Shown here: positions 7,369 to 12,291 of the stretch, piece by piece | Layout: every line of letters starts with the position of its first letter | How positions within the stretch are numbered: the first letter of the stretch is position 1 | DNA from: Escherichia coli | GTDB lineage: Bacteria; Pseudomonadota; Gammaproteobacteria; Enterobacterales; Enterobacteriaceae | Length of the DNA: 49,610 bases | Strand: one strand, 5' to 3' | Assembly (NCBI RefSeq): GCF_003334305.1 | Contig: NZ_QOWS01000028.1 | Program-made: the position numbers and the translations under genes | Notes under the pieces: generated by a model | The model's input: only the letters and a program-made list of their open reading frames with translations | Database searches by the model: none | Told to the model about the DNA's origin: nothing

Positions 7369-8718
7369 TTGGCGGGTTTTAACATCAAACATTGGTTTGC
7401 AGATGGCGCGTTTCGCACCATTATTCGCAATAGCGCCTGGTTAGGCTCCAGTAATGTCGTGAGCGCCTTGCTGGGTCTGTTGGCGCTCTCGTGTGCCGGT
7501 AAAGGGATGACGCCCGCCATGTTTGGCGTACTGGTGATTGTGCAATCGTACGCCAAGTCGATCAGCGATTTTATTAAGTTTCAGACATGGCAACTGGTGG
7601 TTCAGTACGGAACGCCAGCCTTGACCAACAATAATCCGCAGCAATTTCGCAATGTCGTCTCATTTTCCTTCTCGCTGGATATCGTCAGCGGCGCGGTGGC
7701 GATTGTCGGCGGCATTGCCTTACTGCCATTCCTTTCCCATTCATTAGGTCTGGATGACCAAAGCTTTTGGCTGGCGGCGCTGTATTGCACGCTCATTCCT
7801 TCAATGGCTTCCTCCACGCCGACCGGCATTCTGCGTGCGGTAGATCGCTTCGATTTAATTGCTGTACAGCAGGCGACGAAACCTTTTCTGCGCGCAGCGG
7901 GGAGCGTCGTAGCCTGGTATTTTGACTTTGGTTTTGCGGGTTTTGTTATTGCCTGGTACGTGTCGAATCTGGTTGGCGGCACCATGTACTGGTGGTTTGC
8001 AGCGCGCGAATTACGCCGCAGAAATATCCATAATGCCTTCAAATTGAATCTGTTTGAGTCTGCCCGACACATCAAAGGCGCGTGGAGTTTTGTCTGGTCA
8101 ACCAACATTGCCCACTCCATCTGGTCGGCGCGTAACTCGTGCAGCACAGTGCTGGTGGGGATCGTGTTAGGACCCGCTGCCGCCGGGTTATTTAAAATCG
8201 CCATGACATTCTTCGACGCCGCCGGAACGCCAGCGGGTTTGCTGGGTAAAAATTTTTACCCAGAGGTGATGCGTTTAGATCCGCGCACCACCAGACCGTG
8301 GTTGTTAGGTGTGAAGTCCGGTTTACTGGCGGGCGGAATCGGTATTCTGGTGGCGCTCGCGGTGTTTATCGTCGGCAAGCCGCTCATTTCGCTGGTGTTT
8401 GGCGTTAAGTATCTCGAAGCGTATGACCTGATTCAGGTGATGCTGGGCGCAATTGTGATTTCGATGCTGGGCTTCCCTCAGGAGTCATTGCTATTGATGG
8501 CGGGAAAACAGCGCGCTTTTCTCGTGGCGCAAACCATCGCCTCAATCGGCTACATCGTATTGCTGTTCATGTTCTGTCATCTGTTTGGTGTGCTGGGAGC
8601 AGCGTTTGCTTACTTCGGTGGGCAATGTCTGGACGTGGCGCTCTCGTTAATTCCAACCTTAAAGGCATTTTTTCAGCGCCATTCCTTGCTTTATAACGCA
8701 GCCGGAGAGAAATCCTGA
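7369..8718 (+). CDS. yghQ: Polytopic membrane protein, flippase-like (polysaccharide/lipid exporter family), YghQ
   Basis: 449-aa ORF with many hydrophobic helices; remembered as yghQ. TTG at 7369, so the true start is uncertain. Its stop (8716-8718) overlaps the next ATG (8718-8720). Confidence 0.78.
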   Translation: MAGFNIKHWFADGAFRTIIRNSAWLGSSNVVSALLGLLALSCAGKGMTPAMFGVLVIVQSYAKSISDFIKFQTWQLVVQYGTPALTNNNPQQFRNVVSFSFSLDIVSGAVAIVGGIALLPFLSHSLGLDDQSFWLAALYCTLIPSMASSTPTGILRAVDRFDLIAVQQATKPFLRAAGSVVAWYFDFGFAGFVIAWYVSNLVGGTMYWWFAARELRRRNIHNAFKLNLFESARHIKGAWSFVWSTNIAHSIWSARNSCSTVLVGIVLGPAAAGLFKIAMTFFDAAGTPAGLLGKNFYPEVMRLDPRTTRPWLLGVKSGLLAGGIGILVALAVFIVGKPLISLVFGVKYLEAYDLIQVMLGAIVISMLGFPQESLLLMAGKQRAFLVAQTIASIGYIVLLFMFCHLFGVLGAAFAYFGGQCLDVALSLIPTLKAFFQRHSLLYNAAGEKS

Positions 8719-9542
8719 TGATGAGAAAATATTTCCCGCTTGAGGCGAGCGAGCGTCTATTTGTTGCGATTGAAGAAGATGATGTCGTTGATGCACAGGT
8801 TAGTTTGCCGCCGACTATTGCACTAAGTTGTACCACCGAAATCATTCATGATAATTACGCGTTATGCCTGCAATTCTGGCTCAATGGCGTTGATCGTCAG
8901 GAATTACTGCGTTTAGTTCGCAAACAAGCCAAAGGCGATGAGCTGACTGCTGATGAGCGCAAACAATTTAAATACATGCGAGCGCGCTACAAGCACCTGC
9001 GTTTTGCGCAACGGCTGTATTTAAAGAAGCATCAGGCCGGATTTTTATTCGGCAAAACGACCGTTTTTCTGGGGCGTTTTCAGGACGGCTTTCGTAACGG
9101 TAAGAAAAATATTGTGTCGTATTACGGCAACCTGTTACGGATTTATTTAAGCTCTCCGGTCTGGTCGTTGGTGAACTATTCATTACGCCATAGCCAGTTA
9201 GAAAGCGTAAGCAGTTTTATTGCCTATCGGCAAAAGCAAATGCATACCCTGAAAGAGATTATTGCCAAACCGCGACTAACCGGCAGGGAATTTCATGATG
9301 TGCGAAAAATCATCAGCCAACAGGTTTCTTATTACGACACCTTAAGATCGCTTGATCCTGAAAATAAAGAGGCGTTACAGATTTCCCGTTTCCTCGCCGC
9401 CATTAATGGCCTGATGGGAGATAAACACGACGACATGGTGGCGGATGATATGGAAAACCGCCAGTCGTATGATGCACCGGTGGCGCTGGATAGCGATATT
9501 CGCCAGCGCTTAGAGCTGCTGATTTCGCGTTTTCCGCTATAA
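8718..9542 (+). CDS. Hypothetical soluble protein (274 aa)
   Basis: Intact ORF, translationally coupled to yghQ (ATGA overlap); no motif I can name; basic, Lys/Arg-rich. Confidence 0.6.
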   Translation: MMRKYFPLEASERLFVAIEEDDVVDAQVSLPPTIALSCTTEIIHDNYALCLQFWLNGVDRQELLRLVRKQAKGDELTADERKQFKYMRARYKHLRFAQRLYLKKHQAGFLFGKTTVFLGRFQDGFRNGKKNIVSYYGNLLRIYLSSPVWSLVNYSLRHSQLESVSSFIAYRQKQMHTLKEIIAKPRLTGREFHDVRKIISQQVSYYDTLRSLDPENKEALQISRFLAAINGLMGDKHDDMVADDMENRQSYDAPVALDSDIRQRLELLISRFPL

Positions 9543-9550
9543 CCGGAGCA

Positions 9551-10114: not shown

Positions 10115-10144
10115 AAAATTCAAAGGATTGAGGGCGTTAGTGAG

Positions 10145-11215
10145 ATGAAGCTGGTTGAACACTACATCATGCGTGGTACGCGCCGTCTGGTGCTGATTAT
10201 CGTCGGTTTTCTGATCTTTATTTTCGCCAGCTACTCCGCACAGCGTTATCTGACCGAAGCGGCAAATGGGACATTAGCTCTTGATGTTGTGCTGGATATC
10301 GTTTTCTACAAAGTGCTGATTGCACTGGAGATGTTGTTACCTGTTGGTCTGTATGTGTCAGTTGGCGTGACGCTAGGGCAGATGTATACCGACTCGGAAA
10401 TTACCGCTATCTCTGCGGCGGGGGGCAGTCCGGGACGCTTGTACAAAGCCGTTCTTTATCTGGCGATACCGCTAAGTATTTTTGTCACCCTTCTGTCGAT
10501 GTATGGTCGTCCGTGGGCTTATACGCAGATTTATCAACTGGAGCAGCAGTCGCAGTCGGAGCTGGATGTTCGCCAGTTGCGGGCAAAGAAATTTAACACT
10601 AACGATAACGGACGAATGATCCTTTCGCAGACGGTTGATCAGGATAATAATCGCCTGACTGACGCGCTGATTTATACTTCTACTGCCAATCGAACCCGCA
10701 TTTTCCGCGCCCGTTCGGTTGATGTGGTTGACCCATCACCCGAGAAACCGACCGTTATGTTGCACAACGGCACTGCCTATCTTCTCGATCATCAGGGGCG
10801 TGACGACAACGAACAGATCTACCGTAATCTGCAATTACATCTGAATCCGCTGGATCAAAGCCCTAACGTCAAACGCAAAGCAAAATCGGTCACGGAGCTG
10901 GCGCGCTCCGCCTTTCCTGCCGATCATGCCGAACTGCAATGGCGACAAAGCCGTGGCCTGACAGCATTGTTGATGGCGCTGCTGGCCATTTCATTAAGTC
11001 GGGTAAAACCGCGGCAAGGGCGATTTTCAACATTATTGCCACTGACGTTGCTGTTTATTGCCATTTTTTATGGCGGCGACGTCTGCCGTACGCTGGTGGC
11101 TAACGGCGCGATTCCCCTCATTCCTGGTTTGTGGTTAGTACCCGGACTCATGCTAATGGGCCTGCTGATGCTGGTCGCACGCGACTTCTCTTTGCTGCAG
11201 AAATTTTCCCGATGA
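10145..11215 (+). CDS. LptF/LptG (YjgP/YjgQ) family permease, paralog 1
   Basis: N-terminus LVEHYIMRGTRRLVLIIVGFLIFIF resembles the conserved LptF/G start (hydrophobic-x-RY-I-x-R); 356 aa, typical family size. Confidence 0.75.
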   Translation: MKLVEHYIMRGTRRLVLIIVGFLIFIFASYSAQRYLTEAANGTLALDVVLDIVFYKVLIALEMLLPVGLYVSVGVTLGQMYTDSEITAISAAGGSPGRLYKAVLYLAIPLSIFVTLLSMYGRPWAYTQIYQLEQQSQSELDVRQLRAKKFNTNDNGRMILSQTVDQDNNRLTDALIYTSTANRTRIFRARSVDVVDPSPEKPTVMLHNGTAYLLDHQGRDDNEQIYRNLQLHLNPLDQSPNVKRKAKSVTELARSAFPADHAELQWRQSRGLTALLMALLAISLSRVKPRQGRFSTLLPLTLLFIAIFYGGDVCRTLVANGAIPLIPGLWLVPGLMLMGLLMLVARDFSLLQKFSR

Positions 11216-12291
11216 ATGTTTTCAGTCGCTATTTAATCCGTCATCTCTTTCTCGGTTTTGCCGCCGCCGCAGGGCTATTGCTGCCGCTTTTTACCACCTT
11301 CAACCTGATTAACGAACTGGATGATGTCAACCCGGGCGGTTATCGCTGGACTCAGGCGGTGCTGGTGGTGCTAATGACCTTACCGCGCACACTGGTCGAA
11401 CTTTCGCCGTTTATCGCGTTATTGGGTGGTATTGTTGGACTGGGGCAGTTATCGAAAAACAGTGAGCTTACCGCCATTCGCAGCACGGGGTTTTCTATCT
11501 TCCGTATTGCACTGGTGGCGCTGGTTGCCGGGATATTGTGGACTGTTTCGTTAGGCGCGATAGATGAGTGGGTGGCGTCGCCATTGCAGCAACAGGCGTT
11601 GCAAATCAAATCGACCGCCACCGCGTTGGGGGAGGACGATGATATTACCGGCAATATGCTGTGGGCCAGGCGCGGTAATGAATTTGTGACGGTGAAATCG
11701 CTGAATGAACAGGGCCAGCCTGTGGGCGTGGAGATATTTCATTATCGCGACGATCTCTCGCTCGAATCCTACATTTATGCACGCAGTGCCACCATTGAAG
11801 ACGACAAAACGTGGATTCTGCATGGTGTGAATCATAAAAAATGGCTGAATGGCAAAGAAACGCTGGAAATATTAGATAATCTTGCCTGGCAATCGACATT
11901 CACCAGTATGAATCTTGAAGAACTGTCGATGCCGGGCAATAGCTTTTCCGTTCGTCAGCTCAACCATTACATCAATTACTTGCAGGAAACCGGACAACCG
12001 AGCAGTGAGTATCGCCTGGCATTGTGGGAAAAGCTGGGGCATCCCATTTTAACCCTGGCGATGATTTTGCTGGCAGTGCCTTTTACCTTTAGCGCCCCGC
12101 GCTCGCCGGGGATGGGCAGCCGTCTTGCTGTAGGCGTCATCGTTGGCTTACTTACCTGGATAAGCTACCAAATAATGGTCAATCTGGGATTATTATTTGC
12201 GCTGAGTGCGCCCGTTGCTGCACTCGGTTTACCTATGGCATTTGTGCTGGCGGCGTTGATTCTGGTGTATCTATTTGATAGGCAACATTAA
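11212..12291 (+). CDS. LptF/LptG (YjgP/YjgQ) family permease, paralog 2
   Basis: ORF 11131..12291 trimmed to the ATG at 11212 (MNVFSRYLIRHLFLGF..., canonical LptG-like N-terminus), giving an ATGA overlap with the upstream stop. Confidence 0.75.
   Translation: MNVFSRYLIRHLFLGFAAAAGLLLPLFTTFNLINELDDVNPGGYRWTQAVLVVLMTLPRTLVELSPFIALLGGIVGLGQLSKNSELTAIRSTGFSIFRIALVALVAGILWTVSLGAIDEWVASPLQQQALQIKSTATALGEDDDITGNMLWARRGNEFVTVKSLNEQGQPVGVEIFHYRDDLSLESYIYARSATIEDDKTWILHGVNHKKWLNGKETLEILDNLAWQSTFTSMNLEELSMPGNSFSVRQLNHYINYLQETGQPSSEYRLALWEKLGHPILTLAMILLAVPFTFSAPRSPGMGSRLAVGVIVGLLTWISYQIMVNLGLLFALSAPVAALGLPMAFVLAALILVYLFDRQH

Follow-up and report, generated by a model that had tools for sequence, protein, structure and literature searches.

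In this study, lptF2 and lptG2, a second gene pair of the LptF/LptG type in Escherichia coli, were analysed together with their neighbours in a 49,610-nucleotide stretch of contig NZ_QOWS01000028.1 (the window, meaning that whole stretch). We propose that LptF2 and LptG2 act as the membrane part of a second Lpt-type extractor, whose cargo would be the product of the surrounding sphingolipid gene cluster and not lipopolysaccharide (LPS); the probability that we assign to this reading is about 0.7. That a second LptF/LptG pair lies in the E. coli sphingolipid cluster is already known from published work and is not new. What is added here is the predicted acidic cargo pocket of LptG2, the conserved YtfJ-family and 274-aa partner proteins, and annotation errors.

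Until the Caulobacter work of 2024-2026 it was not known how sphingolipids of bacteria get to the outer membrane, and the Lpt machine is understood best in E. coli. Should a natural second F/G pair share LptB there, it would lend itself to asking how a single ATPase can serve two extractors and what makes the cavity choose its cargo. Strain K-12 is without the module, while B/BL21 and most natural isolates have it.

Family and predicted cargo pocket of LptF2 and LptG2

Judged from profile matches, LptF2 and LptG2 are genuine LptF/LptG permease paralogues (YjgP/YjgQ, PF03739). LptF2 scored 318.9 bits against TIGR04407 (LptF; E = 3e-95, cut-off 230) and LptG2 scored 305.3 bits against TIGR04408 (LptG; E = 3.8e-91, cut-off 240), and the models were spanned end to end (positions 2-346 of 347 and 2-348 of 351, respectively). 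The top relatives in the PDB were LptF chains for LptF2 (E = 3e-32 to 1e-25) and E. coli LptG (6mhu_G, E = 3e-41) for LptG2. A preliminary description of this DNA had called the two genes tandem, ATGA-coupled YjgP/YjgQ permeases, and the hidden Markov model (HMM) search it proposed gave scores above the curated LptF and LptG cut-offs. The ATGA overlap lies at 11212-11215; heterodimer formation is demonstrated for the Caulobacter homologues only. The LptF2 product starts with MKLVEHYIMRG, and the LptG2 product, when read from the ATG at 11212, starts with MNVFSRYLIRHL. This start overlaps the lptF2 stop and is consistent with the orthologues and with the LptG profile. The program-made list of open reading frames (ORFs) stretched lptG2 upstream to a GTG at 11131 (386 aa), and a database cluster (P0394, 386 aa) appears to share this long start.

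The canonical lptFG genes are present elsewhere in the genome, adjoining pepA, in the order F then G and with overlapping stop and start. RefSeq gives the paralogues the name 'LPS export ABC transporter permease LptF/LptG', NCBI so names most of their homologues, and both proteins do clear the NCBIfam equivalog cut-offs, which together would fit a redundant or back-up LPS exporter. We regard such a role as extremely improbable. LptF2 is only 29% identical to K-12 LptF and LptG2 only 28% identical to K-12 LptG, and their scores lie 66-151 bits below those of the canonical pair on the same models (385 and 456 bits for canonical LptF and LptG, respectively). The pair is always linked to spt rather than to LPS genes. 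An LPS exporter would be essential and single-copy; here canonical lptFG stand elsewhere, and K-12 is without the paralogues with no consequence.

The residues that bind LPS gave a further argument. In Shigella LptFG, the LPS 1'-phosphate is contacted by LptG K34, K62, R133 and R136 and by LptF R33; the 4'-phosphate is contacted by LptG K40 and LptF K317, and the inner core by LptG K41 and by LptF K322, R263 and Q248 (Tang 2019). Of the LptG substitutions, K34E and R136E are lethal (Tang 2019). These positions were mapped onto LptG2 with phmmer and MAFFT alignments, which agreed. Compared with LptG, E. coli LptG2 has the changes K34 to N, K40 to D, K41 to D, R133 to L, D37 to N and I66 to E; across its relatives the range is K34 to N/D/T, K40 to D/E, K41 to D, R133 to L/V, Q38 to E and I66 to D/E. 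Among 109 full-length LptG2 cluster representatives, positions 34 and 133 were never basic and positions 38, 40, 41 and 66 were always acidic, while positions 62 and 136 were basic in all. In LptF2, K317 is replaced by V and K322 by a hydrophobic residue (I/V/L), and R33 and R263 are unchanged; here the alignment is less secure than for LptG2. Altogether, at least 5 of the 10 cationic LPS-binding residues of LptFG are lost in F2/G2.

Since an invariant acidic patch replaces the lipid A phosphate-binding site, LPS is strongly argued against as the cargo of F2/G2; the K34E change is lethal in LptG. The pocket residues argue for a head group other than a bis-phosphorylated disaccharide as the predicted cargo of LptG2. 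With acidic residues at the phosphate site, RefSeq has thus probably misnamed these paralogues as "LPS export permease", a name that neither the residue evidence nor the scores support.

Predicted ATPase docking and the sphingolipid genes

The preliminary description had seen no ATP-binding cassette (ABC) ATPase with an LSGGQ signature in the locus. This was upheld: in a six-frame scan of the whole 49.6-kb window the motif [LFYIV]SGG[QEMK] was found in no ORF of at least 100 aa, and the identical region carries no ABC ATPase in the RefSeq annotation. Walker A motifs were present in the window only in YghT, YghS, YghR and GspE, the type II secretion ATPase. In the canonical complex, LptB is contacted by the coupling-helix glutamates LptF E84 and LptG E88 and by tyrosines of the first transmembrane helix (TM1) (Dong 2017). 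In E. coli, Serratia, Sodalis and Hafnia alike, F2 and G2 retain the TM1 tyrosines and the equivalents of E84 and E88, and 108 of the 109 LptG2 representatives have the coupling-helix glutamate. The conserved residues are compatible with the use of LptB by F2/G2 and are not proof of it.

A non-ABC energiser encoded in the locus might drive the transporter in place of LptB, with the P-loop proteins YghR, YghS and YghT (YghR/S/T) as the candidates, as no other protein of the module has a Walker A motif and their co-conservation with the module is strict. We hold this to be very improbable: YghR/S/T have no ABC signature, their weak resemblance to nucleoside/nucleotide kinases suggests a modifying enzyme and not a motor, F2/G2 keep the glutamates of an ABC coupling helix, and the Caulobacter F2/G2 proteins bind LptB.

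Beside the permease pair, RefSeq annotates spt, an acyl carrier protein gene, an epimerase-family protein, a fatty acyl-AMP ligase and yghO. Spt scored 597.6 bits against NF047599 (cut-off 500); yghO had no Pfam or NCBIfam match. The four-gene spt operon is convergent with lptG2, and yghO lies beyond it and is divergently transcribed. The five genes spt, acpR, epi, aasR and yghO together correspond to ECD_02850-02854 of E. coli B/BL21, which were all assigned to dihydroceramide synthesis, yghO and epi included (Padilla-Gomez et al. 2022, PMC9386255). In the same work, Spt, AcpR and AasR of E. coli B were active with 3-oxo-sphinganine as the product, Spt preferred acyl-AcpR, and the cognate AcpR was acylated by AasR (PMC9386255). 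The E. coli lptF2 and lptG2 genes are thus encoded next to an spt-acpR-aasR-cerR-cerS gene set.

In Caulobacter, CC_1168, CC_1156 and CC_1155 were named LptC2, LptF2 and LptG2 and were proposed to carry sphingolipid to the outer membrane (Olea-Ozuna et al. 2024). Uchendu, Isom and Klein (bioRxiv 2026) reported that Caulobacter lptF2 and lptG2 tolerate deletion only in an spt or cpgB mutant background, in which synthesis of the sphingolipid with its anionic head group is off, that the two proteins co-purify mutually and also with the single LptB, and that Caulobacter has no lptB duplicate. The operons of E. coli UTI89 are drawn beside those of Caulobacter in Fig. 2B of that work, where lptF2/lptG2 are reported from many alpha- and gammaproteobacterial sphingolipid loci and lptC2 is seemingly confined to Caulobacter (Uchendu, Isom and Klein, bioRxiv 2026). 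By analogy, these F2/G2-LptB experiments lend support to the idea of the preliminary description that a dedicated export route for the locus lipid might borrow a housekeeping ATPase.

We propose the following pathway for E. coli. AasR would load a fatty acid onto AcpR and Spt would condense it with serine, both steps being demonstrated for the E. coli B proteins; YghO would then N-acylate and the Epi/CerR-like reductase would reduce the product to a ceramide-type lipid, as assigned by homology. The lipid may be modified further by YghR/S/T and would then cross the inner membrane, possibly flipped by the MOP-type YghQ together with the 274-aa protein coupled to it. An F2-G2 heterodimer mounted on two housekeeping LptB copies would pull the lipid out of the inner membrane at its outer leaflet. 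The acidic pocket of LptG2 would keep lipid A out and select a head group other than bis-phosphorylated glucosamine. From there the lipid would pass along the periplasmic domains that F2 and G2 retain, and on to the shared LptC/A/DE bridge or by another route. For YtfJ2, the secreted 187-aa protein of the module, lipid or head-group binding and an accessory role to the reductase or to the exporter are options.

Several points weigh against a sphingolipid extractor in E. coli. Literature searches found no report of a native-locus sphingolipid in E. coli, and it may be that laboratory conditions leave the cluster unexpressed. The direct experiments on F2/G2 were made with the Caulobacter proteins, so that the E. 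coli role is argued by analogy, and this transfer is imperfect as the head-group genes and LptC2 differ. The E. coli F2/G2 proteins were likened to the Caulobacter pair by family and locus. Some LptB-contact positions, namely H89, C91 and L93 of LptF and R86 of LptG, differ in F2/G2.

Module conservation, partner proteins and layout of the locus

The permease pair belongs to a module of 13 genes: yghT, yghS, yghR, yghQ, the 274-aa gene, ytfJ2, lptF2, lptG2, spt, acpR, epi, aasR and yghO. The complete set is found together in Serratia marcescens, Sodalis (L004), Hafnia alvei, Erwinia aphidicola and Escherichia whittamii, where its order takes at least three forms. Another Sodalis locus (L013) has 9 of the 13, with yghO and the three P-loop genes undetected in the 21-kb stretch. 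Serratia liquefaciens, Klebsiella indica and Citrobacter farmeri, for which the flanks were shorter, have the string yghS-yghR-yghQ-274aa-ytfJ-lptF2-lptG2, with spt present too where the flank extends that far. The lptF2 and lptG2 genes overlap in all module loci examined. Homologues of LptG2 were from Enterobacterales among the best 120 matches, with a single exception labelled Martelella alba, and a scan of the genome collection with LptG2 gave 6 close loci. It is this co-conservation that places YghR/S/T, the 274-aa protein and YtfJ2 in the proposed pathway.

Instead, the pair might export something else made on the yghQ side (a glycolipid, for example, or a lipid-linked glycan that YghQ flips), with the adjacency of spt reflecting co-regulation. 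Indeed, lptF2G2 share their strand and short or overlapping junctions with yghS-yghR-yghQ-274aa-ytfJ2, while the spt operon is convergent, and YghQ resembles polysaccharide flippases. We consider this cargo unlikely, since the module contains no glycosyltransferase or sugar-activation gene and its 13 genes including spt stay linked through rearrangements, Sodalis having ytfJ beside spt and lptF2G2 apart; the Caulobacter locus, too, has a potential flippase beside its sphingolipid genes.

In K-12 MG1655, homology to the window ends at 8437, and positions 8438-16820 (8383 bp) are replaced by IS5 (1195 bp). K-12 lost the region through an IS5-associated deletion of 8.4 kb. Gone with it are the 3' end of yghQ, the 274-aa gene, ytfJ2, lptF2, lptG2, the four genes of the spt operon (spt, acpR, epi and aasR) and 40 nt at the start of yghO. 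The replacement of 8438-16820 by IS5 explains why K-12 has a truncated yghQ and a different start of yghO. Because K-12 without this segment keeps canonical lptFG, lptF2G2 are dispensable for LPS export.

This loss, the about one quarter of complete E. coli genomes that are without most of window interval 5800-12400, and the literature found, in which no native E. coli sphingolipid is reported, would also fit a module that is a silent or decaying remnant with no current function in E. coli. Such decay is improbable in our view: all ORFs are intact here, at least 80% of the interval is covered in 4092 of 5426 complete genomes (about 75%) at 95-100% identity, and full-length orthologues with invariant functional residues occur in many genera.

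YghQ gave weak matches to MOP flippase families in profile searches, and its orthologues carry the Pfam domain Polysacc_synt; the gene is full length here and truncated in K-12. The 274-aa protein had no match in profile searches of Pfam, NCBIfam or the PDB. It has no transmembrane segment and no signal peptide and is predicted to be soluble, and its homologues were from Enterobacterales only, among the matches listed. Its gene directly follows that of the YghQ orthologue in each of the related loci analysed (L003-L005, L012-L014, L016-L020), with stop and start overlapping or nearly so even where the module is rearranged. This constant adjacency suggests a flippase-partner pair. One UniRef record labels the protein as a CHAD domain; comparison with the CYTH-CHAD protein YgiF of E. 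coli by hhalign gave a probability of 0.3%, and the label had no profile support.

YghS and YghT are named 'dTMP kinase' by RefSeq. The scores do not support this name, as the dTMP-kinase HMM gave only 24-32 bits against a cut-off of 83. No sequence relative of YghR/S/T was found in the PDB. The strict co-conservation of yghR/S/T with a sphingolipid-type module across genera suggests a lipid or head-group kinase role over nucleotide metabolism. CpgB, the ceramide kinase of Caulobacter, is of the LCB5/diacylglycerol-kinase type; homology of YghR/S/T to CpgB was ruled out, these being P-loop proteins.

YtfJ2 carries a typical Sec signal at its N-terminus (MMSSRLIIALIIMLLAPGVQA/HNF), and residues 1-19 are its sole hydrophobic segment. 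It matched PF09695 (YtfJ_HI0045; E = 2.3e-59) and TIGR01626 (211.8 bits, cut-off 151.1) and is 55% identical to the housekeeping YtfJ (b4216). For structure prediction, AlphaFold2 was supplied with a 93-sequence alignment from an exhaustive profile search, an earlier 26-sequence alignment having been unusable (predicted local distance difference test, pLDDT, 47). The resulting model was an alpha/beta fold with a pLDDT of 94.9 and a predicted template modelling score (pTM) of 0.87. Foldseek matched it with a probability of 1.00 to ResA, CcmG/DsbE, StoA, Etrx and TlpA-type extracytoplasmic thioredoxins (E-values from 2.5e-7 upwards, target TM no higher than 0.7), and the best 50 of 512 PDB matches with E <= 0.001 were all of the thioredoxin fold. 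The sequence profile also gave a weak match to ResA, consistent with this fold. YtfJ2 has no cysteine, and 75 of the 93 family members are without Cys after residue 22. In the absence of a CxxC motif or any Cys, thiol-disulfide chemistry is therefore excluded and YtfJ2 is redox-inactive. Taken with the model, YtfJ2 is predicted to be a Cys-less thioredoxin-fold paralogue of YtfJ, and its conserved synteny makes it likely to be a functional partner of some kind.

The preliminary description had suggested that structure prediction might reveal an LptA/LptC-like beta-jellyroll in this 187-aa protein; the prediction gave the thioredoxin fold instead. The jellyroll was ruled out by the alpha/beta model, by the hhalign probabilities (0.5% for LptC and 0.3% for LptA of E. 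coli) and by the lack of any such Pfam match. Splitting locus and housekeeping YtfJ proteins by pairwise similarity was not clean. The locus-linked YtfJ proteins of Serratia, Sodalis and Erwinia are as near to K-12 YtfJ (L008 4709-5263) as to E. coli YtfJ2. Such similarity means that the stand-alone ytfJ may derive from the sphingolipid-locus gene, or the reverse.

The features of the locus are listed in Table 1. The window is E. coli chromosome, and its interval 5800-12400 is 100% identical to E. coli strain A7. ORFs read from the sequence agreed with the preliminary description that the permeases are preceded by the 274-aa gene and the 187-aa signal-peptide gene and coupled to yghQ: interval 8718-12291 holds these four same-strand genes, with coordinates and junctions confirmed. 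The yghQ stop and the 274-aa start overlap at 8716-8720, and the junctions of the interval other than the lptF2/lptG2 overlap are gaps of 8-30 nt. RefSeq starts the 187-aa gene at 9554, compared with 9551 for the ORF.

Table 1. Features of the sphingolipid-permease locus (window coordinates).
Feature	Coordinates	Strand	Description	Basis
yghT	4954..5646	-	third P-loop kinase-like paralogue, divergent from yghS	Walker A, HMM, module conservation
yghS + yghR	5820..7323	+	P-loop kinase-like paralogues heading the same-strand gene string	Walker A
yghQ	7369..8718	+	MOP/Wzx-type flippase-like membrane protein, 449 aa	weak MOP flippase matches
274-aa gene	8718..9542	+	predicted soluble protein, family unassigned, coupled (TGATG) to yghQ	
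ytfJ2	9551..10114	+	secreted YtfJ-family protein, 187 aa, predicted Cys-less thioredoxin-like fold	PF09695, TIGR01626, AlphaFold2
lptF2	10145..11215	+	LptF-family permease paralogue, 356 aa	TIGR04407
lptG2	11212..12291	+	LptG-family permease paralogue, 359 aa, overlaps lptF2	TIGR04408
hairpin	12293..12319	.	candidate terminator between convergent lptG2 and spt	read from sequence
spt	12326..13498	-	serine palmitoyltransferase	NF047599
acpR	13498..13746	-	specialised acyl carrier protein	RefSeq annotation; ECD_02853 (PMC9386255)
epi/cerR-like	13778..14692	-	NAD-dependent epimerase-family reductase, 304 aa	
aasR	14689..16410	-	fatty acyl-AMP ligase / acyl-AcpR synthetase	NF006624, 875 bits; ECD_02851
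yghO	16781..17923	+	N-acyltransferase homologue (aca = cerS = bCerS)	assignment in PMC9386255, Fig. 9 legend

The candidate terminator is a perfect 10-bp GC-rich stem (CCCGCCGTGG-CGCAACA-CCACGGCGGG), which is T-rich on the spt (minus-strand) side only and was missed by the consensus T-run terminator scan. Promoter and terminator scans of the locus gave output at the level of shuffled sequence and were uninformative. What else the window carries (at about 27856-44325 and 44606-49313) is unrelated to the permease pair: sslE and the gsp type II secretion operon, and beyond these part of an island, on which lie radC, an antirestriction gene, a CbtA/YeeU toxin-antitoxin pair, a DUF932 gene and an IS3 transposase end.

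Comparison with known systems

Compared with canonical E. coli LptB2FG(C), LptF2 and LptG2 share the family, the full-length architecture, the overlapping F-then-G gene order, the coupling-helix glutamates and the TM1 tyrosines. They differ in being 28-29% identical and in having the lipid A and core contacts lost or charge-reversed. Their genes are linked to spt and, being absent from K-12, are nonessential, whereas canonical lptFG stand next to pepA.

YtfJ2 shares family membership and secretion with YtfJ (b4216) of PF09695. The housekeeping ytfJ is stand-alone, as are distant family members in unrelated contexts, whereas ytfJ2 lies directly upstream of lptF2G2 in E. coli, Serratia, Hafnia, Erwinia, Citrobacter and Klebsiella indica, and beside spt in Sodalis. 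With the extracytoplasmic thioredoxins TlpA, ResA and CcmG (DsbE), YtfJ2 has the predicted fold in common; the CxxC motif is theirs only.

The closest parallel is LptF2/LptG2 of Caulobacter crescentus (CCNA_01214/CCNA_01213), likewise a tandem pair among spt, acpR, aasR, cerR and cerS, in a locus with no LptB copy and with a potential flippase nearby. LptC2 is present there and absent from the E. coli locus, which adds three P-loop kinase-like genes, YghQ with the 274-aa protein, and a secreted YtfJ paralogue. A model search found no LCB5-type lipid kinase (CpgB family) among the genes of the E. coli locus, and no counterparts of cpgA-D are described in the literature for the enterobacterial locus. 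With no cpgA-D counterparts described and no LptC2 in the locus, the cargo head group probably differs from that of Caulobacter CPG2. We would go further only tentatively, and with more doubt than confidence: Enterobacterales may possess a variant sphingolipid system, in which a non-CPG2 product, its head group neutral or cationic and perhaps the work of YghR/S/T, would be bound by the conserved acidic pocket of LptG2 (E35, D37, D38, E/D63), and in which YtfJ2 and the 274-aa protein would be dedicated flipping or export subunits in the role proposed for Caulobacter LptC2.

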